Below are positions 12,960-30,553 of a DNA stretch of 32,000 nucleotides, piece by piece (within the stretch, counting starts at the first letter, position 1; every line of letters begins with the position of its first letter). A model generated the notes under the pieces. The model did no database searches. It was given only the letters and a program-made list of their open reading frames with translations, and was not told the DNA's origin. Location of the stretch: assembly GCA_910588975.1 (NCBI GenBank), contig CAJUSE010000004.1:3790-35789 (forward strand), written 5' to 3'. Source of the DNA: an uncultured Oscillospiraceae bacterium (GTDB lineage Bacteria > Bacillota > Clostridia > Oscillospirales > Oscillospiraceae). A program made the translations under genes and the position numbers.

Positions 12960-13472
12960 CTATGTGGGGAACAGGGGCGTGTAGGCAAGCGCTCCATTTA
13001 CCCGGTGGGAGAGGAACAGGGTGCCGTAGCCCGTCCGGGCGGGGATGGGCCGCTGGAGGGGGCCGGTGGGGTCCACGTCGTGGAGCAGCTTGACCTTTCG
13101 GCCCAGGGTCACGTGGGGGACAAAGAGCCGGTTCTCCACCTCAAAGCCCGCCCGGCGCAGAGAGCGGACCAGCCGCAGCTGGGCGGCGTAGAGGTCGGGC
13201 TCAAACTCGGGGCACAGGTGGTAGATGCCGTTGGGAAAGAGGGCGAGCCGGTCGAAGGTCAGCGCCATGGGGGAAATGTGGGTGTCCATGAGGGCGGCCT
13301 TGGCGGTCTCTGCCCGGTCCGGCTCCACCTCTCCTAAAAAGACCAGGGTGAGGTGAAAATTCTCCCGGGTGGTGAAATTTCCCTTTTCGGCCAGCTTTTT
13401 CAGCTCCCCCTGGGCCTGGGCGAACCGGTCCTTGGCCCCCTCCTCGAAGGGAAGCCCCAAAAACAGTCTCAC
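12960..13472 (-). CDS. thpR: RNA 2',3'-cyclic phosphodiesterase (2H phosphoesterase, ThpR/LigT)
   Basis: Two HxT/S motifs are present (HLTL and HVTL). The GTG start overlaps the upstream TGA (GTGA). The rest of the 349-aa ORF is an out-of-gene extension across other genes. Confidence 0.75.
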   Translation of the reverse strand: MRLFLGLPFEEGAKDRFAQAQGELKKLAEKGNFTTRENFHLTLVFLGEVEPDRAETAKAALMDTHISPMALTFDRLALFPNGIYHLCPEFEPDLYAAQLRLVRSLRRAGFEVENRLFVPHVTLGRKVKLLHDVDPTGPLQRPIPARTGYGTLFLSHRVNGALAYTPLFPT

Positions 13473-13723
13473 AGGGTGGCCCCCTCTCCGATGAGCGCCA
13501 GCTTCTCCTGCCGGGTCAGCCTCTTGACGGCGATCTCCCGCCGGAGGGCGGCGGACTTGTCCGTGCAGTCCTCCCGGTAGACCAGCTCCAGCGGCCCCCG
13601 GCCCCGGGTGTACTTGGCCCCCTTGCCGCTGCGGTGGGCCTTTAGCCGCCGATCCATGTCGTCGGTGATGCCGGTGTAGAGGGTGCCGTCGCCGCAGCGA
13701 AGTATGTAGAGCTGCCAGGCCAT
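13469..13723 (-). CDS. GIY-YIG nuclease family protein (UPF0213-like)
   Basis: The product starts MAWQLYILRCGDGTLYTGITDDMDRRLKAHRSG. The start is Met73 of the track ORF. Confidence 0.8.
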   Translation of the reverse strand: MAWQLYILRCGDGTLYTGITDDMDRRLKAHRSGKGAKYTRGRGPLELVYREDCTDKSAALRREIAVKRLTRQEKLALIGEGATL

Positions 13724-19177: not shown

Positions 19178-19582
19178 GTGAGGATCGGCGCAACAGAACT
19201 TTTGGTGGTGTTTGTGGTGGCCCTTCTGGTCATCGGGCCGGATAAGCTGCCCGCTTTTGCCAAGAAGCTGGGAGAGGCCATGGGTCAGTTCAAGCGCTAT
19301 TCGGACAAGGTGGCCAAGGAGATCCAGGAAACCGTGGTAGAGCCCATGGAGGAGGTCGCCGAACCTATCCGCAAGGCCGTAGAACCCATCGAGGAGATGG
19401 ACAAGACCATCCGCAGCAGCGTGCGGGAGGTGGAGAAGTCCTTCTCGGATATTGGAAAGCCCGCAAAAAAGACCGCCTCTCCGGCCCGGGAGACTGCCGA
19501 GGCTTCGGAGGGCGAAGAAAAACCAGAAGTCACAGACAGCGAAAGCGCTGTGAAAAAGGAAGAGGAGGAGCAACAACAATGA
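19178..19582 (+). CDS. Twin-arginine translocase TatA/E/B family protein, long TatB-like form (copy 1)
   Basis: GTG start. The N-terminus reads MRIGATELLVVFVVALLVIGPDKLPAFAKKLG (TM segment, hinge, amphipathic helix) and is followed by a long acidic tail. Confidence 0.85.
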   Translation: MRIGATELLVVFVVALLVIGPDKLPAFAKKLGEAMGQFKRYSDKVAKEIQETVVEPMEEVAEPIRKAVEPIEEMDKTIRSSVREVEKSFSDIGKPAKKTASPARETAEASEGEEKPEVTDSESAVKKEEEEQQQ

Positions 19583-19764
19583 GATTGGGTACACTTGAAA
19601 TTCTGGCTATTCTGGGCATCGTCCTGCTGGTGTTCGGTCCCACCCAGCTGCCCAAGCTGACCAAGATGTTCGGCAAGAGCGTCAAGAGCTTTAAGGAGGG
19701 CGTGGAGGAGGACAAGTCCACCGCCGACAAGGGGACTGAGGATGGCGACAAAAAGGAAGACTGA
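19579..19764 (+). CDS. tatA: Twin-arginine translocase subunit TatA (copy 1)
   Basis: The product starts MRLGTLEILAILGIVLLVFGPTQLPKLTKMFGKSVKSFKEG. An ATGA overlap links it to the upstream gene. Confidence 0.9.
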   Translation: MRLGTLEILAILGIVLLVFGPTQLPKLTKMFGKSVKSFKEGVEEDKSTADKGTEDGDKKED

Positions 19765-20584
19765 GGCGACTGCCCAGGAAAAGCGGATGAAGCTGACAGG
19801 CCACCTGAAGGAGCTGCGCTCCCGGCTGGTGGTCTGCCTGCTGGTGCTTTTCGTGACCATTATCGTGGGCATCGGCCTGGCTCCCAAGCTGGTGGAGCAC
19901 CTGCTGAACATGGGCAAGGTCTACGGCTATCAGTATGTCTATCTGTCCCCCCAGGAGCTGCTGATGCAATACATGTCGGCGGCACTGGTTTTTGGCATCG
20001 TGGCCACCATGCCCCTGATTCTCTATCAGGTCTGGGCCTTTGCCAAGCCGGGGCTGACCAAGCGGGAGAACCGGGTGTTTTTGTGTGCCCTCATCTTTGG
20101 GACCATCTGCTTCTGCGTGGGTGTCTACTTCGCCTATCAGGTCATGCTGCCCACCATGCTGCTGTTTCTCAGCACGCTGGAAAACAGCGCTGAGGTGGCC
20201 GCCGCCATCTCGGTACAGAATTACATCTCCTTCCTGTTGACCATCTTCATCATCTTCGGCAGCGTGTTTGAGCTGCCCGTGCTGTCGGTGGTGCTGGATG
20301 CCGTGGGTATCCTGAAGGTGAAATGGATGAAGCAGGCCCGACGGTATGTCATTGTGGTCAGTTTCATCGTATCCGCCTTCATCACCCCTCCTGATGTGGT
20401 CAGCCAGGTCATGGTGGCCATCCCTGTTATGGGACTGTATGAGCTGAGCATCATCCTGTGCTCCATCGTGGAAAAGCTGCGGCGGAAAAAGCCCGAGGAG
20501 GATGACGAGGAGAGGGAGGCTTCCGAAAAGGGAGAAGCGTCCCCCGAGAAGGAAGAAGCGTCCCCTGAAAAGAACGAGGAGTAA
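19742..20584 (+). CDS. tatC: Twin-arginine translocase subunit TatC
   Basis: The product has 6 TM segments and TatC motifs (HLKELRSRL, PLILYQVWAFAKPGL, SAFITPPDVVSQ). An alternative start at 19787 is possible. The acidic C-terminal tail contains an EASPEK repeat. Confidence 0.9.
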   Translation: MATKRKTEATAQEKRMKLTGHLKELRSRLVVCLLVLFVTIIVGIGLAPKLVEHLLNMGKVYGYQYVYLSPQELLMQYMSAALVFGIVATMPLILYQVWAFAKPGLTKRENRVFLCALIFGTICFCVGVYFAYQVMLPTMLLFLSTLENSAEVAAAISVQNYISFLLTIFIIFGSVFELPVLSVVLDAVGILKVKWMKQARRYVIVVSFIVSAFITPPDVVSQVMVAIPVMGLYELSIILCSIVEKLRRKKPEEDDEEREASEKGEASPEKEEASPEKNEE

Positions 20585-20693: not shown

Positions 20694-21221
20694 ATGAAAA
20701 ACAACCTGTTTTTGACCGGAGACCGAAGGGTGGGCAAGAGCACCTGCATCGACCGGGCACTGGAGCAGGTGCGGGGTGAGGTGAGGGGCTTTCGCACTTA
20801 CTTTGCCGACGAGACCAGAGCGCAACTGCTGCTTTCTGACCCGGCGGGGCGACAGACCCAGGTAGCGGCCCGGCGGCGGGCAGAGGGGGGCTTTCAGGTT
20901 TTTGAGGAGGCCTTTGAGGGCTGCGGCGTGGAGCTGCTCCACTCCGGTTGGGAGGCAGATCTGATGCTTATGGATGAGCTGGGCAAGCTGGAGACTGGCT
21001 GCCCCCGGTTCCGCTCTGCCGTGCTGGAGACGCTGGAGCGCCCCGTCCCCGTGCTGGGGGTGCTGCGCCAAGGGGAGGGGGAGTGGCTGGATCTGCTCCA
21101 CCGCCACTCGGCCATAGAGGTGCTCACCGTAACAGAGGACAACCGGGAATGGGTCGGGGAGCAGCTGTCCCGCTGGCTGAGGGAGCTGGGGCTTGTGCCG
21201 GAGATTTGCCCCGGAGTGTAA
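20694..21221 (+). CDS. P-loop nucleoside-triphosphatase (THEP1/NTPase_1-like)
   Basis: ATG at 20694 follows gaaggggggag. Walker A is LTGDRRVGKST and Walker B is LMLMDELG. The product is 175 aa. Confidence 0.65.
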   Translation: MKNNLFLTGDRRVGKSTCIDRALEQVRGEVRGFRTYFADETRAQLLLSDPAGRQTQVAARRRAEGGFQVFEEAFEGCGVELLHSGWEADLMLMDELGKLETGCPRFRSAVLETLERPVPVLGVLRQGEGEWLDLLHRHSAIEVLTVTEDNREWVGEQLSRWLRELGLVPEICPGV

Positions 21222-21326: not shown

Positions 21327-21355
21327 TTGACATTTTCGGCCGAATGGAATAGAAT
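21327..21355 (+). promoter_or_regulatory. Strong candidate promoter for the tat2-AOR operon
   Basis: TTGACA (21327-21332), a 17-nt spacer, then TAGAAT (21350-21355). Confidence 0.65.
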
Positions 21356-21365
21356 ACATATGAAA

Positions 21366-21470
21366 ATTGAATAGTCTCCGAGTAGGGTCGGCCTAAGGAT
21401 AAGCATCTATGGCCGTCCTGCCAGGGCCAGGCCGGAAACGGCATGACCTTCCGTTGTGAAAAGGGGCTTC
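21366..21470 (+). promoter_or_regulatory. Structured 5' leader, candidate Moco/W-co (RF01055-like) riboswitch aptamer, copy R1
   Basis: It shares two conserved blocks with the leader at 27405-27520. These are tgaataNNCTCCGAG (21368-21382) and CCTTCCGTTNTGAAAAGGGGC (21447-21467), with similar spacing (64 vs 68 nt). It contains an internal GNRA hairpin gccg-gaaa-cggc (21431-21442). The class assignment rests on my recollection of the consensus, not on a covariance-model search. Confidence 0.5.
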
Positions 21471-21570
21471 ACACCCGCCGGGCATGACATTTGCGTGCCT
21501 TGGCCCGTTACTTCGTGTGGGACAGCTCTTTTTCAAGGAGAAAGTGCGCCCCATGGAGACAGGGGAAGCT

Positions 21571-21607
21571 GTGGGTGTTTTGGGAAACCGGGACACCTGT
21601 TTTTTTA
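21571..21607 (+). terminator. Weak candidate intrinsic terminator within the tat2 leader
   Basis: gggtgt-(14-nt loop)-acacct followed by g and seven T residues. The stem is short and includes a G-U pair. Confidence 0.3.
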
Positions 21608-21726
21608 CCCATTTTTTCGACAAATTTCGAGGGATTTCCCCGGGAGCGGGGGTCCACAAGACTATTTTGACCTCCTGGCACATAGATTGCCATGAACGGA
21701 TCAGAGGGAGAAAGAGGAGGAGACCC

Positions 21727-22179
21727 ATGAGGATCGGAGCAGTGGAACTGTTGGTGATATTTGCTGTGGCCCTTCTGGTCATCGGACCGGACAAGCTGCC
21801 CGCCTTCGCCAGAAAGCTGGGGGAGGTGCTGGGGCAGTTCAAGGGCTACTCGGATAAGGTGGCCAAGGAGATCCGGGAGACGGTGGTAGAGCCCATGGAG
21901 GAAGTGACCCAGCCCATTCGGGAGGCCATGAAGCCCATCGAGGAAGTGGACAAGACCATCCGCAGCAGTGTGCGGGATGTGGAGAAGTCCTTCTCCGGCA
22001 TCGGCAAGCCCACGAAGAAGCCGGTGTCCCAGCCCGCCGCTCCGGCGGAGGCGGAACAGGCACCCCCTGCGGAGGAGGCCCCCGCACCCCGGCCGGCAGA
22101 TCCGGAGGAAGAAGAGATATTAAGAGAGCTTAAGGAAATTCAGGTCGAGGAAGACCGTATGAAGGAGGAAGAAAAATGA
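21727..22179 (+). CDS. TatA/E/B family protein, long TatB-like form (copy 2)
   Basis: ATG at 21727 follows aaagaggaggag. Over the first 98 aa, 81 positions are identical to copy 1 (hand count). Confidence 0.85.
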   Translation: MRIGAVELLVIFAVALLVIGPDKLPAFARKLGEVLGQFKGYSDKVAKEIRETVVEPMEEVTQPIREAMKPIEEVDKTIRSSVRDVEKSFSGIGKPTKKPVSQPAAPAEAEQAPPAEEAPAPRPADPEEEEILRELKEIQVEEDRMKEEEK

Positions 22180-22358
22180 GATTGGGAACATTGGAGCTCC
22201 TGGCCATCCTGGCCATCGTGCTGGTGGTCTTCGGCCCGTCCCAGCTGCCCAAGCTGACTAAGATGTTTGGCAAGAGCGTGAAAAATTTCAGGGAGGCAGT
22301 GGACGAGACCGACAAGGAGGACACTGCCGACGAGAAGGGCGAGGACGACAAGTCCTGA
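22176..22358 (+). CDS. tatA: Twin-arginine translocase subunit TatA (copy 2)
   Basis: ATGA overlap with the upstream gene. Over the first 44 aa, 36 positions are identical to TatA copy 1 (hand count). Confidence 0.9.
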   Translation: MRLGTLELLAILAIVLVVFGPSQLPKLTKMFGKSVKNFREAVDETDKEDTADEKGEDDKS

Positions 22359-22450
22359 ATGTGGTTTAAGCCGCTTGTCAAAGCGCTTAAATAAAGAGAA
22401 AGCACAGGATGAAACGGCCTGTGCGAAATGAAAAGAGGAGGTCATCAATT

Positions 22451-23077
22451 ATGGCGAAAGAGAACTTTGCGAGCGCAGACATGACACGCCGCCAATTCCT
22501 GAAGATCTCGGGAAAGTCACTGGTAGGTCTGACCCTGTCTGCCTCATTCCTCTCCCTGGTGGGTTGTACCCAGGACCAGGTGGATGACGGCGATGTCATG
22601 GTCTGGGCTCTGCCCCAGGGCCTGCTTGTGGTCAACCAGGATAAGTGCACCGGCTGCCAGCGCTGCGAGATCAACTGCACCCTGGTCAACGACGGCGCTG
22701 TGTCCAGCTACATGTCCCGTGTGAAGGTGACCCGGAACCTGTTCTCCAGCAGAAACGGCTCCGGACTGTATACCGACGACCACTGGACCTACTTCCCCGA
22801 CACCTGCCGGCAGTGCGCCGACCCCGCCTGCGCTAAGGCCTGCCCCAAGGGCGCCATCTATGCCGACGAGAACGGCGTGAAGAAGGTGGACGAGGAGAAG
22901 TGTATCGGCTGCGGCGCTTGTACCGAGGCTTGCCCCTGGCACATGCCCACCGTGAACCCCATCACCAAGAAGTCGTCCAAGTGCATCCAGTGCGGCGCTT
23001 GCGTGGCCGGCTGCCCCTCGGGCGCTCTGTCCATCATCCCCTGGGAAGAGGTCGCTGCGGCCGCCCAGGCAGTCTAA
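22451..23077 (+). CDS. Tat-signal, lipobox-bearing 4x[4Fe-4S] ferredoxin-like subunit (DmsB/YdhX-like)
   Basis: ATG at 22451 follows gaggagg. The Tat motif TRRQFLK lies at 22484-22504 and the lipobox LVGC has its Cys codon at 22565-22567. Four cluster motifs are visible: CTGCQRCEINC, CRQCADPACAKACP, CIGCGACTEACP and CIQCGACVAGCP. Confidence 0.85.
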   Translation: MAKENFASADMTRRQFLKISGKSLVGLTLSASFLSLVGCTQDQVDDGDVMVWALPQGLLVVNQDKCTGCQRCEINCTLVNDGAVSSYMSRVKVTRNLFSSRNGSGLYTDDHWTYFPDTCRQCADPACAKACPKGAIYADENGVKKVDEEKCIGCGACTEACPWHMPTVNPITKKSSKCIQCGACVAGCPSGALSIIPWEEVAAAAQAV

Positions 23078-23094: not shown

Positions 23095-25257
23095 ATGTCT
23101 GCACAGAACGGTATCAACGGCTGGGCCGGTACGATCCTGCGGGTCAACCTGACCACCGGCTCCATCACCCGGGAGGACACCCTCCCCAAGTATAAGCCCT
23201 TTGTGGGCGGCATGGGCATCGGCTACAAGATCATCTGGGACGAGGTCCCCATGGAGACCGAGCCCTTCAGCGAGGAGGCCAAGGTGGTCTTTAGCGTCGG
23301 CCCCCTGACCGGCTCCGGCGTGCCCTGCTCCGGCCGGACCACCATCACCCTGCTGTCCAACTGGTCCAAGGGCAAGTCCATCCTGGACGCCCACATGGGC
23401 GGCCATCTGGCCCACGGCATCAAGTATGCCGGCTATGATGCCATTGTCATCGAGGGCAAGGCCGACAAGCCTGTCTACGTGAAGATCGACGACGACAAGG
23501 TCACCATCGAGGATGCCTCCCACGTCTGGGGCAAGGGCACCTTCGAGACCAATAAGATCCTGGCCGGCGAGGCCGGCCCTGAGTTCGACGTGGCCTCCAT
23601 CGGCCCCGCCGGCGAGCACCTGCTGGGCTACTCCACCATCAACACCGCCTTCGGTAACTCTGGCGGCGCCGGTGTTGGCGGCGCCTTGGGTGCCAAGAAC
23701 ATGAAGGCTATTGTGGTCCGGGGCACCGGCGCTGTGAAGATCGCCGATCCCGTGGAGCACAAGAACCTGTGCGACTATATGATCCGGGACCTGGTTGGCG
23801 GCAACAACAACCACAACGTCCCCTCCCGTCCCCAGTCCTGGGCCGAGTACACCTCCACGGTGAAGAACCGTTGGCAGGGCGGCCCCGGCGTGGTGTGGGG
23901 CGCCGCTCCCTCCGGCCCCATCGACACCGGCGAGCAGCCCTCCGGCGACATCCAGGTGGCTGCTTACCGTGCCGTGAAGGGCGTGTTCGATTACGGTGAC
24001 ATCGTCCAGAAGTACATCGTCAAGTCCGGCGGCTGCGCCTCCTGCCCGGTCCGCTGCTACTCCGAGTACGAGGTGGACGTGCTGGCTGATTACGACCTGC
24101 CCACCAAGGTGTCCAACACCTGCGTGCCCTCCGGCAGCGTGCCCACCGCTTTCTACGCCAAGGGCTGCATGCATGACTTCAAGGAGGAGGGCGACTCCAA
24201 GATCGTCATCGGCCTCCACGGTGCTTACGTCATGGACGATCTGGGTCTGTGGGAGGACTACGCCAACCTGGGCCGTGATTTCGCCTGGTGCCTGGAGAAC
24301 GGTGTCTTTGAGAAGAAGCTGCCCAAGGAGGAGTACGACTCCATTCCCTGGCAGCTGATGAAGGACGGCGATCCCCGCTGGCTGGACGAGATCATGGGCC
24401 GCATCGCCCGCAAGGAGGGCGAGATCAGCATCATCGGCGAGGGCAGCTACTTCTTCTACAAGGCCTGGGGCCTGGATGATGCCGCCAAGAACGAGTGGGG
24501 CGTCAACATGTACGATAAGATCGGCGGCAACAACAACGTCACCTACAACGGCTTCCCCAAGCATCACTCCAGCGAGGATGGCTGGCAGTCCGGCCTGCTC
24601 TACAACGTGATGTATAACCGGGACTGTATGGTCCACGTGCTGACCAACTTCGTCCGTTCCGGCTCTCCCTTCGAGGAGGTCATTAAGCCGGTGCTGGAGA
24701 GCTACTTCGGCGAGGGCTGTGTGGACGCTCCCAAGGCCTACACCCCCATCAACGAGAACAAGGTCAAGCTGGCCAAGTGGTGCTTCCTGGAGAAGCAGTG
24801 GGCGGACTCCGCCACCCTGTGCGACTGGATGTACCCCATGACCCTGTCCACCTCTCCCGCCCGGAAGTACGTGGGCGACATCGAGCTGGACGCTAAGTAC
24901 ATGACCGCCGTCACCGGCGAGAACTGGACCATGGACGACATCTTCGAGGCCATGGAGCGCATCAGCGCCATGCTGCGGGCTATGACCGCCATCTCCTTCA
25001 AGATCCACGAGGGCGAGACCAACCTGCGCACCAGCCACGACCGGGTGCCCGATTGGGTGTTCGACAAGGATCCAGACTTCAAGGCCTTTGAGAAGGGCAC
25101 CGACAAGATGGATCGGGATGACTGGGAGAAGTCCCTGACCATGTTCTACGAGGCCATGGGTTACAGCACCGAGACCGGCATCCCCACCCGGGAGACCCTG
25201 GAGCGGCTGGATCTGGCCGATGTGGCCGACAGGCTGGAGGAGTACGAGCTCATCTAA
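23095..25257 (+). CDS. Aldehyde:ferredoxin oxidoreductase (AOR) family tungsto/molybdopterin enzyme, YdhV-like, with no signal peptide
   Basis: The AOR_N pattern is visible (GWAGTILRVNLTTGSI...VGGMGIGYKII...GPLTGSGVPCSGR...IGPAGEHL...GAKNMKAIVVRGTG). A CxxCxxxC [4Fe-4S] motif (CASCPVRC) lies at 24034-24057. The product is 720 aa. Confidence 0.85.
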   Translation: MSAQNGINGWAGTILRVNLTTGSITREDTLPKYKPFVGGMGIGYKIIWDEVPMETEPFSEEAKVVFSVGPLTGSGVPCSGRTTITLLSNWSKGKSILDAHMGGHLAHGIKYAGYDAIVIEGKADKPVYVKIDDDKVTIEDASHVWGKGTFETNKILAGEAGPEFDVASIGPAGEHLLGYSTINTAFGNSGGAGVGGALGAKNMKAIVVRGTGAVKIADPVEHKNLCDYMIRDLVGGNNNHNVPSRPQSWAEYTSTVKNRWQGGPGVVWGAAPSGPIDTGEQPSGDIQVAAYRAVKGVFDYGDIVQKYIVKSGGCASCPVRCYSEYEVDVLADYDLPTKVSNTCVPSGSVPTAFYAKGCMHDFKEEGDSKIVIGLHGAYVMDDLGLWEDYANLGRDFAWCLENGVFEKKLPKEEYDSIPWQLMKDGDPRWLDEIMGRIARKEGEISIIGEGSYFFYKAWGLDDAAKNEWGVNMYDKIGGNNNVTYNGFPKHHSSEDGWQSGLLYNVMYNRDCMVHVLTNFVRSGSPFEEVIKPVLESYFGEGCVDAPKAYTPINENKVKLAKWCFLEKQWADSATLCDWMYPMTLSTSPARKYVGDIELDAKYMTAVTGENWTMDDIFEAMERISAMLRAMTAISFKIHEGETNLRTSHDRVPDWVFDKDPDFKAFEKGTDKMDRDDWEKSLTMFYEAMGYSTETGIPTRETLERLDLADVADRLEEYELI

Positions 25258-25274: not shown

Positions 25275-25943
25275 ATGGCGTTTTTTGGAAGAAGAAAGCC
25301 GGGGTTTTCCAAGGAGGAGACCGTGGATCCCCGGACCCTTTCAGACGTCGTGGTTGAGGAGTATGGGAACAAATCTGGCACCACCGCCGATGAGGCGGTG
25401 GTGCCGGCTCCTGTTCAGGAGGAAGGACCCCTGCCGGCCAATATGGCCCAGGCCCTGGCCCAATTCGTTCGCAACCACAGCGCTGCCGGGATGCTGGTCT
25501 CGCTGAACCAGCTGACCGAAGAGGATCCCACCATCCCCACCCTGTTTGAGCAGATGCGGGCTGATCCCGCCTGCGGCGACATCGCCCTGCGCAAGACGGC
25601 GAAGGATACCTATCTCTATCAGGAGGGCTCCATGAGCGAGCTCTACCTGATGCTCAACACGCTGGTGCTGGATGACGATGCCAAGAATACCATTGTCACT
25701 CTGGTGCGCTACAACAGCAAGACCTACCCCTCTGTGACTCCCTATGACTACTTCACCCGCCCCCCCTTCTCCATGCCCATGGAGCGCATTGAGACGGCAA
25801 TTCAGGACATTTTGGACAGCGGTGAACCGGCGGATATCGCCAGGGTGGTCTCATCGGAGGGGAATTCCTACCTCTATTCCACGGACCATATCACGCCGGA
25901 GTATGCCAAGGGTCTGGCCGAGTTCGTGGAAGACAACGACTGA
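25275..25943 (+). CDS. Hypothetical acidic protein, paralog A (possibly YdhW-like, judged from operon position and size)
   Basis: The 222-aa product has no TM segment or signal peptide. Its C-terminal 150 aa or so align with the next ORF (CGDI/CQDI, YLY/YFY, TLV, VRYNSKTYP/VRFHAEKYP, TPYDYF/TPFTYF, EYAKGLAEF/KYGKALADF). Confidence 0.5.
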   Translation: MAFFGRRKPGFSKEETVDPRTLSDVVVEEYGNKSGTTADEAVVPAPVQEEGPLPANMAQALAQFVRNHSAAGMLVSLNQLTEEDPTIPTLFEQMRADPACGDIALRKTAKDTYLYQEGSMSELYLMLNTLVLDDDAKNTIVTLVRYNSKTYPSVTPYDYFTRPPFSMPMERIETAIQDILDSGEPADIARVVSSEGNSYLYSTDHITPEYAKGLAEFVEDND

Positions 25944-25958: not shown

Positions 25959-26633
25959 ATGGCGCCTGAGGAGAAGATCAACAATCCCTTTTTTGAGGGC
26001 GAGAAGATCCCGGATGTGGAAGGGCGGCCGGATCTGCTGGAGTATCTGGAGTCCCTGCCCGAGGTGGAGGACACCATGCCCCCCATTCCAGAGAAGGAGC
26101 CTGAGCCCGAGCCGGAGTTCACCCCGGAGGAGGAGCTTGCCAACGTGATCCGGCGAGCCTCCGGCCGGAGCCGGCTGGTGAAAAAAAGCCAGATCCTGCA
26201 GGAGATCACCAGGGGTGAGGAGCTTTTGGGCCTTATGCTGGCCAGTGAGAGCTGCCAGGATATCCGCAGCAAAAGCGGCAAGGCTGAGATCTATTTTTAC
26301 TCCTCCCAGCACATGACGGACAACTATGCCATGATTGCCACCCTGGTGGAGGAGGCGGACGGCCCGGCCACCATTGCGCAGATGGTCCGCTTCCACGCTG
26401 AGAAGTATCCCGCCGCCACCCCCTTTACCTATTTTTTCGGCACGCCCTATAACTGGACGAGGGAGCAGTTCATGCTGGCCCTGGAACAGCTGCGGAAAAT
26501 TCCGGATTACGAGGACATCGTGGAGGTCCACGCCTACGATGATACCCCCTTCCTGATCTCCACCAAGTTTGTGACGGAGAAATACGGCAAGGCGCTGGCC
26601 GACTTCGGGCAGGAGAGCACGGAGAGCATGTAA
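25959..26633 (+). CDS. Hypothetical acidic protein, paralog B (possibly YdhW-like)
   Basis: The 224-aa product has a Pro/Glu-rich N-terminus (EKEPEPEPEFTPEEE). Its C-terminal domain is paralogous to 25275-25943. Confidence 0.5.
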   Translation: MAPEEKINNPFFEGEKIPDVEGRPDLLEYLESLPEVEDTMPPIPEKEPEPEPEFTPEEELANVIRRASGRSRLVKKSQILQEITRGEELLGLMLASESCQDIRSKSGKAEIYFYSSQHMTDNYAMIATLVEEADGPATIAQMVRFHAEKYPAATPFTYFFGTPYNWTREQFMLALEQLRKIPDYEDIVEVHAYDDTPFLISTKFVTEKYGKALADFGQESTESM

Positions 26634-26655: not shown

Positions 26656-27360
26656 ATGGACGAACAGACGGCCCTGCCCATTCAGACCGTGACCGGGCTC
26701 CAGACCACGGCGGAGGGGGAGACCCTCCCTGTGGAGATGGCACTGCCTGTGGAGCACAAAATCGACATTTACGTGGACGGTGAGCTTTACCGCCCGGTGG
26801 TCTGCACCCCCACCATGCTGCCGCAGCTGGTGCTGGGGCGGCTGATTACCGACGGCGTGATCTGGGGCATAGAGGAGGTGGCCCAATGGGCCATCTCCCC
26901 GGCGGGGGACAGAGCCGACGTGGCGCTATCCCACAAGCCCCGGCCGGAAAGGGAGAGGCGGGATGCCCCTGCTGTTACGGACGGTATGATCCGCACAGCC
27001 CAGGCCAAGCTGGCCGAGGGAAATCCCCTTTACAAAGCTACCCGGGGGGTCCACTGCTGTATCCTGATCCACGGGGGCGAGCTCCGCTATGTCACCGAGG
27101 ATCTGTCCCGCCACAGCGCCCTGGACAAGGCGGTGGGAAGTGCCCTTTTGGCCGGGGTGGAGCTGGGGGAGTGTGTGCTTTTCTCCAGTGGCCGGGTGCC
27201 GACGGATATGCTCCAAAAGAGCATCAACGCCGGGATCCGGGCTCTGATCGCCAAGGCCATTCCCACCTATCAAAGTGTAGAGCTGGCCCGAAAGCAGGGC
27301 ATCACCCTCATCTGTGACGCCCGGGGGGGCAAGTACGCCCAGTTTTCCCCTTTGACTTGA
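26656..27360 (+). CDS. fdhD: FdhD-family protein (formate dehydrogenase accessory sulfurtransferase-like)
   Basis: RBS: aaggaga. FdhD-like blocks are visible (IDIYVDGELYRPVVCTPTMLPQLVLGRLITDGVI, EDLSRHSALDKAVG, SSGRVPTDMLQKSINAGIRALIAKAIPT). The product is short (234 aa) and contains no CxxC motif. Confidence 0.7.
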   Translation: MDEQTALPIQTVTGLQTTAEGETLPVEMALPVEHKIDIYVDGELYRPVVCTPTMLPQLVLGRLITDGVIWGIEEVAQWAISPAGDRADVALSHKPRPERERRDAPAVTDGMIRTAQAKLAEGNPLYKATRGVHCCILIHGGELRYVTEDLSRHSALDKAVGSALLAGVELGECVLFSSGRVPTDMLQKSINAGIRALIAKAIPTYQSVELARKQGITLICDARGGKYAQFSPLT

Positions 27361-27386
27361 CAAAGAGACTCCCGCTGTGGTATCCT
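27357..27386 (+). promoter_or_regulatory. Candidate promoter for the ABC importer operon
   Basis: TTGACA (27357-27362, overlapping the fdhD stop), an 18-nt spacer, then TATCCT (27381-27386), with TGg just upstream as an extended -10. Confidence 0.5.
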
Positions 27387-27404
27387 CAGTGGGAACACAA
27401 GAAC

Positions 27405-27520
27405 TGAATATGCTCCGAGCCGGCTGTACCTACGGGAGGGAACTCCTACGGTCCCCCGGCCACTGGGTCACATGGAAAACCATATGGCCTTCCGTTTTGA
27501 AAAGGGGCAGCTTGCATATC
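27405..27520 (+). promoter_or_regulatory. Structured 5' leader, candidate Moco/W-co riboswitch aptamer, copy R2
   Basis: It has the same blocks as R1: tgaatatgCTCCGAG (27405-27419) and CCTTCCGTTTTGAAAAGGGGC (27488-27508). A closing helix atatgc (27408-27413) pairs with gcatat (27514-27519). Internal hairpins are ggag-ggaa-ctcc (27435-27446) and ggcca...atgg-aaaa-ccat...tggcc (27458-27489). Confidence 0.5.
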
Positions 27521-27563
27521 GGGGACGCCCCTTTGGAGCGCCCCGGAATGGGTTGTACGCTCT

Positions 27564-27597
27564 GGACTCCTTTTCTTCGGAAAAGGAGTCCTTTTTT
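27564..27597 (+). terminator. Strong intrinsic terminator forming the expression platform of leader R2
   Basis: ggactcctttt-cttcgg-aaaaggagtcc followed by tttttt, about 50 nt upstream of the permease ATG. Confidence 0.8.
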
Positions 27598-27648: not shown

Positions 27649-28662
27649 ATGGAGGAAAAGCGAGCAAACCGCACCCTGTTGGCTCTGGGGCTTGCCCTGG
27701 CGGCTCTGGTGGCCCTGTCCTTCACCCTGGGCCGGTATGGTTTGGGGCTGGGAGAGCTGTGGCGTGTGCTCACCGGCACCCCCCTGGGCCTGCCGGCCAG
27801 CCAGATGACCCCCCAGCAAACAGTTGTGTGGAACATCCGCCTGCCCCGCATCCTGCTGTGCTGCCTGGTGGGGGCTTGCCTTGCCTCGGCAGGGGCCTGC
27901 TATCAGGGGGTGTTCCAGAATGCCATGGCCTCTCCCGACCTGCTGGGCTGCTCCCAGGGGGCTGCCTTTGGGGCGGCTCTGGCCATCCTGCTGGGGGCCG
28001 GCACCGCCGGGATCACCGCCTCGGCCTTCCTGTTCAGCCTGGTGACAGTGGCCCTTGTCTACCTCATTGGCCAGTATGCCCCTGGGCAGAAGGTGCTCAA
28101 TTTGGTGCTGGGGGGCGTGATGATCGGCTCCCTCTTCTCGGCGGGGACCTCCTTTATCAAGCTGGTGGCCGACCCGGGAGACCAGCTGCCCGCCATCACT
28201 TACTGGCTCATGGGCTCTCTGGCCGGGGCCAGGATGGAGACCGTACTGCTGGCTCTGGTGCCCATGCTGTTGGGCCTTGTGCCCCTGTTCCTGCTGCGCT
28301 GGAAGATCAACCTGCTGGTGATGGGGGAGGAGGAGGCCCGGGCCATGGGGGTGCATACCGACCGGCTGCGGCTGGTGGTGGTGCTGTGCGCCACCCTCAT
28401 TACGGCATCGGCGGTGTCAGTGAGCGGCCTCATTGGCTGGGTGGGGCTGGTGGTGCCCCACCTGTCCCGGATGCTGGTGGGCAGCAATTACAAGCACCTG
28501 CTGCCCTGCTCGGCCCTCTTTGGGGCGGGGTTCCTGCTCCTCACCGACAACGTCAGCCGAAATCTCTTTACCGCCGAGCTGCCCATCGGCATCCTGACGG
28601 CCTGGATCGGCGCTCCCTTTTTCATCTATCTCATGCTGCATCAGGGGAGGGGAGAGACATGA
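27649..28662 (+). CDS. FecCD/BtuC-family ABC transporter permease
   Basis: ATG at 27649 follows aaaggagaggg. The product has typical FecCD blocks (IRLPRILLCCLVGACLASAGACYQGVFQN, GIPMGILTA-like LPIGILTAWIGAPFFIYL). Confidence 0.85.
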   Translation: MEEKRANRTLLALGLALAALVALSFTLGRYGLGLGELWRVLTGTPLGLPASQMTPQQTVVWNIRLPRILLCCLVGACLASAGACYQGVFQNAMASPDLLGCSQGAAFGAALAILLGAGTAGITASAFLFSLVTVALVYLIGQYAPGQKVLNLVLGGVMIGSLFSAGTSFIKLVADPGDQLPAITYWLMGSLAGARMETVLLALVPMLLGLVPLFLLRWKINLLVMGEEEARAMGVHTDRLRLVVVLCATLITASAVSVSGLIGWVGLVVPHLSRMLVGSNYKHLLPCSALFGAGFLLLTDNVSRNLFTAELPIGILTAWIGAPFFIYLMLHQGRGET

Positions 28663-29456
28663 TAGAGGTCAAAGACCTGTGCTTTTCCTACCGCAGCCGG
28701 GAGGTACTCAAGGGGGTCTCCTTCCAGGCAAGGGAGGGTACGGTCAGCTTCGTGCTGGGGGCCAACGGAGCGGGCAAGACCACCCTGTTCCGCTGCCTGC
28801 TGGGCCTCTACAGGCCCAGCGCCGGGGCCGTGCTGCTGGATGGAGAGGACCTGACCAGGCTGCCGCCCCCCCAGCTGGCCAAACGGCTGGCCTATATTCC
28901 CCAGAGCCATGCCCCCGTTTTTGATTTCACCGTGCTGGACATGGTGCTCATGGGCACCAACCACGACCTTGGGACCTTTCGGTCCCCGGGGGCGGAGGAG
29001 CGCCGCCGGGCCATGTCCGCTCTGGAGCGGGTAGGGGCCCAGGAGCTGACCCACCGGGTGTTCCGCCGGCTCAGCGGGGGGGAGCAGCAGCTGGTCCTCA
29101 TTGCCCGGGCCCTGGCCCAGGGCTCCCGGGTGCTGGTTATGGACGAACCCACTGCCAATCTGGATTACGGCAATCAGCTTCTGGTGCTGGAGTGCGTCTG
29201 CCGGCTGGCAGAGGAGGGCTACACCGTCCTTATCTCCTCCCACGACCCCCAGCACGCCCTGTGGTATGCCCACCGGGTGCTGGCGCTGGACGGGGGCGTG
29301 GTGGTGGCCGACGGTCCCGCCGGGGAGGTGCTGGACGGCCCGCTGCTCCAACAGCTCTATGGCGTGGAGGCAGAGTTTGCGCAGGCGAGCTGCGGCCGGG
29401 TCATTGTCCCCAGGCAAATCAAAACGCACAAGGTGTATAAGGAGGAAATGGAATGA
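28659..29456 (+). CDS. ABC transporter ATP-binding protein (FepC/BtuD-like)
   Basis: ATGA overlap with the permease gene. Walker A is GANGAGKTT, the ABC signature is LSGGEQQ and Walker B is VLVMDEP. Confidence 0.9.
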   Translation: MIEVKDLCFSYRSREVLKGVSFQAREGTVSFVLGANGAGKTTLFRCLLGLYRPSAGAVLLDGEDLTRLPPPQLAKRLAYIPQSHAPVFDFTVLDMVLMGTNHDLGTFRSPGAEERRRAMSALERVGAQELTHRVFRRLSGGEQQLVLIARALAQGSRVLVMDEPTANLDYGNQLLVLECVCRLAEEGYTVLISSHDPQHALWYAHRVLALDGGVVVADGPAGEVLDGPLLQQLYGVEAEFAQASCGRVIVPRQIKTHKVYKEEME

Positions 29457-30553
29457 AAAGAACGGTCTCTATGCTTCTGGCCCTGACCTTGGGCCTCACC
29501 CTGGTGGGCTGCAGCGGCCAGAGGGGGGAGAAAAACCCGGATCCCGAGGTCAGCACCCCTGTTGAGGAGAGCCAGACCACCGAGCCCCGGAGCTTTACCG
29601 ACTCCCTGGGCCGGACGGTGGAGCTGCCCGCCCAGATCGACCACATCGCCGTCAGCGCCGCCATGGCCCAGCGGGTGGTGGCCCCCCTGGCCGCTGATAA
29701 GATGATCGGGCGCTCCGGGGAGTTCACCGAGGCGGAAAGGGAGTATTACACCGACGCCTATGCCGAGCTACCCGTGGTGGGCGAGTTCTACGGCAAGGAG
29801 ACCGGGGATCTGGAGGTGCTGCTCTCCTCCGGCGCCCAGGTGGTCATCGACGTAGGTACGCCTAAGGACGGTCTGGCCGAGGACCTGGACGCCCTCACCC
29901 GGCAGACGGGCATCCCCTTCGTCCACATTTCCTTCTACGCCGATGCCATGGATGAGGTATATATCAAGCTGGGCGAGCTGCTGAACATGCCCGATGAAGC
30001 CGAGAAGCTGGCGGCCTACTGCCGGGAGACCTATGATATGGTCCAGGCCATCGCCGACAAGGCCGAGAAGGCCAACATCCTCTATGTGGTGGGGGATAAG
30101 GGGCTCAATGTCATCGCCAGGGGCAGCTACCACGCCGGGGTCATCGACATGCTGACCAACAACCTGGCCGTGGTGGATAACCCCGTCTCCAAGGGCTTTG
30201 GCAACGAGGTGGACATGGAGCAGATCCTGCTCTGGGACCCGGATATCATCTTCTTCTCTCCTGAGAGCATCTATGATACCGTGGCCGATGATCCCCTCTA
30301 TCAGCAGGTCACCGCCATCAGGAACGGGGCCTACTATAAGGTCCCCCTTGGCCCGGACAACTGGATGGGCTTTCCCCCTTCGGTCCAGCAGCTGCTGGGT
30401 ATGCAGTGGATGGCCAAGGTCCTCTATCCCGACCTGGCCGACTACGACCTCTACGAGCGGGTAAATGAGTTCTACACCCTGTTCTACCATAAGCCCCTGT
30501 CCCAGGAGGAATTCGATAAGCTGGTCGCCGGCTCTCTGAGCCCGAAAGCCTGA
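29453..30553 (+). CDS. ABC transporter substrate-binding lipoprotein (Peripla_BP_2 / cluster A, BtuF/FhuD-like)
   Basis: ATGA overlap with the ATPase gene. The Sec/SPII signal with lipobox reads MKRTVSMLLALTLGLTLVGC. The 366-aa product sits downstream of the FecCD permease and ATPase genes. Confidence 0.8.
   Translation: MKRTVSMLLALTLGLTLVGCSGQRGEKNPDPEVSTPVEESQTTEPRSFTDSLGRTVELPAQIDHIAVSAAMAQRVVAPLAADKMIGRSGEFTEAEREYYTDAYAELPVVGEFYGKETGDLEVLLSSGAQVVIDVGTPKDGLAEDLDALTRQTGIPFVHISFYADAMDEVYIKLGELLNMPDEAEKLAAYCRETYDMVQAIADKAEKANILYVVGDKGLNVIARGSYHAGVIDMLTNNLAVVDNPVSKGFGNEVDMEQILLWDPDIIFFSPESIYDTVADDPLYQQVTAIRNGAYYKVPLGPDNWMGFPPSVQQLLGMQWMAKVLYPDLADYDLYERVNEFYTLFYHKPLSQEEFDKLVAGSLSPKA

Follow-up and report, generated by a model that had tools for sequence, protein, structure and literature searches.

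The locus described here lies within a 32,000-nucleotide stretch of DNA (the window, 62% G+C); it recurs identically in the gut metagenome-assembled genome GCA_948656925.1, and the closest relatives with names, Vermiculatibacterium and Pseudoflavonifractor, belong to the Oscillospiraceae. It comprises a tatB1–tatA1–tatC cluster, an NTPase_1 gene, a promoter and leader carrying a P3-less aptamer (R1), a seven-gene operon (tatB2–tatA2–worS–worL–ydhW–ydhW–fdhD) and, behind this, a second leader with another P3-less aptamer (R2) and importer genes (Table 1).

Table 1 Features of the locus, with positions in the window
Feature	Position	Strand	Basis or remark
tatB1	19178–19582	+	upstream of R1 promoter
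tatA1	19579–19764	+	upstream of R1 promoter
tatC	19742–20584	+	upstream of R1 promoter
NTPase_1 gene	20694–21221		PF03266, PRK13695-like; between tatC and R1
Sigma-70-type promoter, TTGACA-17-TAGAAT	21327–21355	+	consensus scan, 11/12 matches; predicted start ~21362–21364
Aptamer R1, P3-less (Tuco-type)	21364–21482	+	RF01055 covariance-model match
R1 P1	21374–79/21463–68	+	model pairs
R1 P2	21382–93/21411–21	+	model pairs
R1 GAAA receptor, 11-nt (CCUAAG/UAUGG)	21392–97/21408–12	+	P2 bulge, read directly from sequence
R1 P4, GAAA loop 21435–38	21424–34/21439–49	+	model pairs
R1 P5	21450–51/21458–59	+	model pairs
Alternative aptamer-open helix A:B, GUGAAAAGGGGCUUCACAC (21456–74) with GUGUGG..AGCUCUUUUUC (21514–34)	21456–21534	+	RNAduplex
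Tail ACACCCGC, candidate antiterminator strand	21471–21478	+	directly 3′ of P1; complementary to terminator 5′ arm
Hairpin c1	21511–21558	+	aligns with R2 terminator hairpin; no U-tract; excludes A:B
Intrinsic-terminator-like hairpin, 13 pairs, GAAA loop, then U7	21571–21607	+	consensus scan; forms in every full-length fold
tatB2, 150 aa, TatB-like, IGPDKLP hinge, first cistron	21727–22179	+	PF02416, 44.1 bits (cut-off 21)
tatA2, 60 aa, FGPSQLP hinge (TatA-like)	22176–22358	+	PF02416, 51.5 bits (cut-off 21)
worS, WorS/YdhX-YdhY-like 4x[4Fe-4S] ferredoxin	22409–23077 (gene callers: 22451)	+	NF007382, 254 bits vs cut-off 213
worL, WorL/YdhV-like AOR-family pyranopterin enzyme, 720 aa, no own signal peptide	23095–25257	+	AFOR_N + AFOR_C; NF007354
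ydhW, two paralogous YdhW-family genes	25275–25943, 25959–26633	+	PF27264 YdhW_C precomputed on both
fdhD, cofactor sulfurtransferase/insertase family, last cistron	26656–27360	+	PF02634, 1.2e-42
Second promoter	27357–27386	+	consensus scan
Aptamer R2, P3-less	27401–27523		RF01055, 61 bits
R2 terminator, then U6	27564–27591
FecCD / ABC / Peripla_BP_2 (type-II) importer	27649–30553		behind R2

The operon and its Tat genes

The seven cistrons are 15–22 nt apart or overlapping, save for a 92-nt gap before worS; the start of tatA2 overlaps the stop of tatB2 (ATGA). Judged by its gene content, the operon is predicted to encode a YdhV-type (‘class V WOR’) enzyme of the AOR family, with WorL passing the YdhV equivalog model NF007354 narrowly (869.5 bits vs a cut-off of 868). 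Both YdhW genes score 105–106 bits with NF007411, under its cut-off of 203, and the best NCBIfam model for tatB2 is TIGR01410 (tatB), below its cut-off. The ferredoxin carries a twin-arginine motif, TRRQFLK, and a lipobox, LVGC, which suggests a Tat-exported lipoprotein anchor; the Tat motif is conserved in relatives. Because this iron–sulfur partner has a twin-arginine signal, the complex would be exported by Tat, with the AOR subunit probably crossing the membrane as a hitch-hiker. The WORs of clade 41, ‘class V’, have a Tat-signal WorS (PMC13328260), and since the class to which this enzyme appears to belong is defined by such a small subunit, the presence of tat genes nearby has an obvious reason. 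In the ferredoxin itself the twin-arginine motif is followed by the lipobox as LSLVGC; at least one relative (locus L010 of the survey below) is without the cysteine.

TatB2 is 74% identical to TatB1 and TatA2 75% identical to TatA1, and TatB2 and TatA2 are nearer to TatB1 and TatA1 than either pair is to the Tat proteins of sister genera (61–73%). The duplication is also visible in the DNA, where 19141–19716 matches 21696–22316 at 72% nucleotide identity. By these comparisons tatB2–tatA2 is a lineage-specific duplicate of the tatB–tatA module, together with its ribosome-binding site, set into the head of the operon. The tat genes come first only because, in this lineage, the duplicate landed between the leader and the ferredoxin gene. 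The older tatB1–tatA1–tatC cluster lies outside riboswitch control. A preliminary description of this DNA had proposed that the leader ties export capacity to cofactor availability; the idea survives for the extra tatB2–tatA2 pair, which is under R1, but not for tatC and tatB1–tatA1, which are outside, and what R1 regulates is the enzyme operon as a whole. The riboswitch would thus co-induce extra TatA and TatB with their cargo, and would not control the Tat system at large. Brought into a cofactor-controlled operon along with that cargo, these Tat components would form a small, concrete example of export machinery matched to the supply of holo-enzyme.

The NTPase_1 gene between tatC and R1 may encode a maturation factor or accessory protein of the enzyme system that has so far gone unrecognised. 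The tail of TatC (window positions 20500–20584) is acidic and repeat-like (…EASEKGEASPEKEEASPEKNEE), and gene callers start tatC 15 codons after the longest-ORF start.

Aptamer R1 and its occurrence among relatives

An Rfam cmscan of the whole window, run on both strands with 4227 families, returned two matches above the gathering score, R1 and R2, both to the full RF01055 model (Moco/Tuco riboswitch) and both P3-less. For R1 the score is 54.4 bits (E 1.4e-10), where the gathering score is 36, and the match spans model positions 1–135 end to end, with the P3 positions deleted; this resemblance is far beyond chance. The preliminary description had taken the element for a Moco/W-co riboswitch-like aptamer, had mentioned a short variant of the motif associated with tungsten-cofactor genes and had suggested a search with RF01055 and all of Rfam, which bears out the assignment, in the short, P3-less form. 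Its placement of the element (about 105 nt, 21366–21470) was right, although the real extent by RF01055 is slightly larger. The landmarks it had pointed to are likewise there: CTCCGAG near the 5′ end (21376–21382), a block near the 3′ end (CCTTCCGTTGTGAAAAGGGGC, 21447–21467), a GNRA-capped hairpin between the blocks (gccg-gaaa-cggc, 21431–21442), the TTGACA-17-TAGAAT promoter about 10 nt upstream (the gap is 9–10 nt), Tat subunits as the first cistrons (PF02416 at 44 and 51 bits) and an AOR gene after them.

In R1, 31 of the 34 model pairs are canonical, the junction sequences (CUCCGAG..., CCUUCCG...GAAAAGG) are all present, and the tetraloop and its receptor are intact. P1 is weak (GUCUCC/GGGGCU, with one U–C mismatch), and two positions of P4 are mismatched. 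Six contigs of the same species differ by three substitutions in the aptamer, all structure-neutral: the variant at 21388 falls in a bulge, that at 21420 turns a U–G pair into U–A, and that at 21430 affects an already mismatched P4 position. From this pattern R1 looks maintained.

A MAFFT alignment of six aptamers (A2) was inconsistent with the structure, with 16–21 of 34 pairs for the distant members, so a covariance model was built from R1 and R2 and then iterated from 56 hits. In the resulting alignment of 71 aptamer sequences, which was fitted to the model and hence leans towards the structure, 91% of cells are paired (about 42% in slid controls) and 20 of 25 pairs show changes on both sides. 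The preliminary description had called for a covariation analysis of leaders upstream of orthologous tat–AOR operons; covariation is present in the family aptamer alignment, and no orthologous R1-type leaders were found to align.

To place R1 among its relatives, we retrieved 80 species loci with an alignment of 33 AOR homologues and mapped their genes by tblastn. The ferredoxin–AOR–YdhW core is present in nearly all 80; tatB, tatA and tatC are usually divergent upstream, and on the same strand in six. In the covariance-model search, about 58 of the 80 showed a P3-less aptamer directly ahead of the ferredoxin gene, at a distance of 80–200 nt (loci L008–L066; for example, L034 6011–6200 and L045 7114–7290). 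In the six same-strand loci it stands between tatC and the ferredoxin gene, so that tat is not under aptamer control, and in the Tissierellia and Lachnospiraceae loci it is found downstream of ydhW instead. Among the 80 sampled Clostridia, which come from gut and rumen, most thus have a P3-less (Tuco-type) riboswitch at the head of their YdhV-type ‘class V WOR’ operon. An aptamer is missing from the three closest relatives (84–86% AOR identity), in which a LysR-type gene occupies the interval from a divergent tatBAC to the operon; the contig of the 75% relative begins too near the ferredoxin gene to show a leader. Within one family the regulator was swapped between a LysR-type protein and a riboswitch.

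LysR-type regulator genes were located at L007 2800–3700, L032 6270–7190 and L087 3533–4441. At least 13 of the related loci have an NTPase_1 homologue no more than 8 kb from the AOR gene (L018, L019, L022, L026, L028, L030, L033, L035, L039, L045, L052, L059 and L062). Two loci have paired Moco-class aptamers: in L039 they are in tandem on the same strand (13378–13514 and 13542–13662), ~3 kb downstream of the AOR gene, and in L035 they are on the minus strand (1039–1149 and 1210–1348).

No tat genes follow any of the ~70 aptamers from the 80 related species. A pattern scan of metagenome contigs for the aptamer core yielded 20 further loci sharing the core of R1 and R2; the identifiable downstream genes resemble modA-, moeA/moaA- or formate-dehydrogenase-type genes, with likely roles in cofactor synthesis, in transport or as formate dehydrogenases (labels taken from ORF translations), and no tat gene follows the aptamer at any of the 20. 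A TatB2-based scan of metagenome contigs for R1-type leaders likewise found nothing. The Tat-first arrangement, which the preliminary description had called unusual, is therefore absent from the ~90 other aptamers examined, and the order ‘aptamer then tat’ is unique to this species among everything we examined.

Expression platform and direction of the switch

The R1 leader runs for 245 nt from the aptamer to the start codon of tatB2. Four sites in 7 kb match the promoter criterion; the only other one on the plus strand heads the second riboswitch, and the consensus scan gave no promoter-like site between the terminator and fdhD. A possible internal promoter in the stretch from the terminator to tatB2 was rejected: the TTGACC near 21664 lacks a −10 element at a suitable distance. 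The sole terminator-like site in the leader is the hairpin at 21571–21600 with its U7 tract, and for this reason transcription attenuation is most likely the mode of action. We have good confidence that R1 functions as a P3-less Moco/Tuco riboswitch and attenuates this operon. It would sense a metal-bound pyranopterin cofactor and control premature termination at 21571–21607, and so set the expression of all seven genes.

The leader of R1 is, on alignment, paralogous to that of R2 and not to the leaders of relatives. R2 has what reads as a textbook OFF platform, in which its core GAAAAGGGG, the antiterminator strand, is complementary to the terminator 5′ arm CUCCUUUUC, and this output would fit a transporter. 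The R2 antiterminator aligns with, and is homologous to, the A:B helix of R1 (17 bp, about −29 to −30 kcal/mol by RNAduplex). The counterpart of its terminator hairpin, c1, is now separated from the U-tract of R1 by ~55 nt containing a new hairpin, the present terminator. Four substitutions among strains fall in the c1 stem (21511, 21541, 21543 and 21553), and all keep pairing. No orthologous leaders with the R1 platform were found, so covariation in the platform helices is confined to these few within-species variants.

The relatives’ leaders have a different build. Among 51 leaders that precede the ferredoxin gene, a script detected a P1-overlapping hairpin followed by a U-run in 48 (37 clean, a few spurious); the hairpin begins in or next to the 3′ strand of P1 (AGGAG...), ends in ...CUCCU and runs into the U-run. 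Transcriptional ON riboswitches with a P1-overlapping terminator are exemplified by the adenine riboswitch of pbuE/ydhL, and the same design is present in the worS leaders of 37–48 of the 51 species. Because P1 and the terminator compete, the ligand should turn the relatives’ operon ON, an output that makes sense for a cofactor-dependent enzyme. Set against the OFF design of the transporter paralogue, these leaders provide matched natural pairs in which one aptamer class serves opposite outputs. R1 probably shares their output, but its terminator, unlike that of pbuE/ydhL, does not overlap P1. A P1-overlapping terminator of the relatives’ kind was sought in R1 and not found; GUGCGCCCC (21544–52) can pair with the 3′ strand of P1, with no U-run behind it. 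If R1 is an ON switch, the signal would have to be relayed through A:B, c1 and a helix between the tail and the terminator.

We propose the following relay. In the unbound state, 21514–21534 would capture the aptamer’s 3′ core together with the tail as A:B, and the terminator would form. With ligand, P1 would close, A:B would open and c1 would form; the freed tail, ACACCCGC, could then pair with the 5′ arm of the terminator and allow read-through. The tail complements GUGGGUGU (21571–78) over 8 bp, a match that by our estimate is about what chance would give in such a leader, and it is accordingly named here as a candidate antiterminator strand. In the fold models an open aptamer keeps the bases of the tail sequestered in A:B, and a closed one leaves them free. 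Partition functions for transcripts up to 21592, too short to contain the whole 3′ arm of the terminator, give the tail–terminator helix a probability of 0.97 in the ligand-bound state, as against 0 with A:B formed. At 21596 the probability of the terminator’s lower stem is 0.56 bound and 0.98 unbound, and from 21600 onwards the terminator wins in both states. Full-leader folds gave no distinction between ON and OFF, since the terminator formed whether or not the aptamer was enforced; because enforced non-canonical pairs give non-comparable energies, these folds were recomputed with canonical pairs only. With the terminator predicted in every full-length state, any switch in R1 must be kinetic. 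On the comparison with relatives and these models, we lean, with moderate confidence, towards R1 being an ON switch.

The kinship with R2 raises the alternative that R1 is an OFF switch like its paralogue, with the cofactor favouring termination and the operon expressed when the cofactor is scarce. The two agree in 81% of aptamer columns, and as the antiterminator and terminator of R2’s textbook OFF design align with A:B and c1, its logic could have been kept. The full-length minimum-energy fold with the aptamer enforced contains the terminator, and in the A:B state the freed 3′ arm of c1, GCGCCC, can transiently pair with the terminator 5′ arm (P ~0.6). Terminator-type Tuco riboswitches of E. 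limosum are, moreover, up-regulated under W limitation (PMC11725836). The apo-specific antiterminator, however, adds only ~1 kcal/mol, and the lower terminator stem already stands at 0.98 by 21596; c1, once the terminator, no longer has a U-tract; an ON build is seen in 48 of the 51 related leaders that precede the same operon; and it would be physiologically odd to repress a cofactor-dependent enzyme when its cofactor is present. We regard an OFF switch as possible but doubtful.

It is improbable that R1 is dead or some other element. One version of this would make it an inactive or decaying duplicate of R2, the operon constitutive and the downstream hairpin a leaky terminator or irrelevant. 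Such decay could account for the unusual length of the platform (245 nt from aptamer to start codon) and its remodelling, with ~55 nt between c1 and the U-tract, and for the mismatches in P1 and P4, and the closest relatives manage without a riboswitch, carrying the LysR-type gene instead. Yet the score lies 18 bits over the gathering threshold with the core junction nucleotides and the tetraloop–receptor pair intact, the six contigs of the species show only structure-neutral changes in the aptamer, and a strong promoter stands at a canonical distance, all of which makes decay quite improbable. Translational control, by pairing of GUCUCC (21374–79) with the tatB2 Shine–Dalgarno region GGAGAC (21719–24) when P1 is open, is rejected as a chance match and is highly improbable: the minimum-energy fold of 21362–21730 pairs exactly these six bases, and such Tuco and Moco riboswitches are known (PMC2408646; PMC11725836), but 340 nt separate the two partners, an interval that holds four stable hairpins and the terminator, the match is to be expected when CUCC is invariant in the family’s aptamers and GGAG occurs in every Shine–Dalgarno sequence, and no relative has such an arrangement.

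Returning to the ON reading, we put forward one bolder, tentative proposal, which as a whole we think rather unlikely: that evolution converted an OFF-type Tuco riboswitch into an ON switch, which drives the cofactor-dependent co-induction of dedicated TatA and TatB paralogues with a Tat-exported tungstoenzyme cargo. On this proposal, ~55 nt with a new terminator would have been inserted between the old terminator hairpin and its U-tract, and the old antiterminator–terminator pair would now act as the relay. If true, it would represent a natural inversion of riboswitch logic together with a cofactor-gated export capacity.

Comparison with known systems and the likely ligand

The aptamer of R1 itself adds nothing new. 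It has the P1, P2, P4 and P5 helices, junctions and tetraloop–receptor of the P3-less subclass of the Moco/Tuco riboswitch (RF01055; Regulski et al. 2008, PMC2408646), and, like that class, it is found upstream of pyranopterin-enzyme genes with an intrinsic terminator after it. It differs in its platform, which is long and has the look of an OFF platform that was remodelled. The first two cistrons also set it apart, as tat genes are not among the contexts given in the available part of PMC2408646.

In E. limosum, Tuco riboswitches are found upstream of wor1SLXABC, tupABC, two ‘Fe ABC-type’ transporters and focA, with both terminator and RBS-sequestering platforms described (PMC11725836). The window shares two of these contexts, a WOR operon and an iron-siderophore-type ABC importer, each behind a P3-less RF01055 aptamer. 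The WOR1 of E. limosum differs, however, in being a cytoplasmic, electron-bifurcating enzyme of the class IV type, with no Tat signal, no tat genes and a riboswitch proposed to be translational. The operon studied here resembles E. coli ydhYVWXUT and the class V WORs of clade 41 (PMC13328260) in its YdhV equivalog, Tat-signal ferredoxin and adjacent putative YdhW-family and fdhD genes, and differs from the E. coli system in having no YdhU-type membrane cytochrome, no YdhT and two YdhW paralogues. Tat genes near the operon have been noted for Cetobacterium somerae (PMC13328260); here they are inside the operon rather than beside it, and the operon is under a riboswitch, a form of regulation that PMC13328260 does not mention for class V WORs.

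It is already known, then, that Tuco riboswitches precede WOR operons and iron-siderophore-type ABC importers (in E. limosum), that RF01055 contexts include cofactor-using enzymes, and that tat genes occur beside class V WOR operons. What appears to be new is limited to the position of tat genes as the first riboswitch-controlled cistrons, the apparently remodelled platform, and the widespread occurrence of P3-less, ON-type leaders ahead of class V WOR operons among Clostridia of gut and rumen.

The ligand of R1 is most likely a metal-bound pyranopterin cofactor, and its tungsten form seems a better guess than the molybdenum form. R1 has both features of the Tuco subclass, the absence of P3 and an AOR-family gene downstream. 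Loss of P3 correlates with Tuco genes, a published correlation rather than a proven rule (PMC2408646), and its absence was used as a signature of W dependence in the E. limosum study (PMC11725836). The E. coli YdhV binds and prefers Mo, and the class V enzyme of Cetobacterium prefers W (PMC13328260). Because YdhV of E. coli binds Mo, it is the P3 correlation alone that carries the tungsten assignment for R1. The 2026 WOR classification paper left W versus Mo open for class V enzymes and made no mention of riboswitches (PMC13328260); the riboswitch type offers a testable hint that these Clostridia load the tungsten cofactor.

The importer behind R2 may carry either W/Mo or Fe. For its binding protein, the best PDB matches are proteins without an assigned ligand. 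A weak match (E 1.8e-9) was obtained with MolA (HI_1472), the molybdate/tungstate-binding component of a type-II importer from Haemophilus. In E. limosum, comparable ‘Fe ABC’ transporters governed by Tuco riboswitches were interpreted as iron transporters (PMC11725836).
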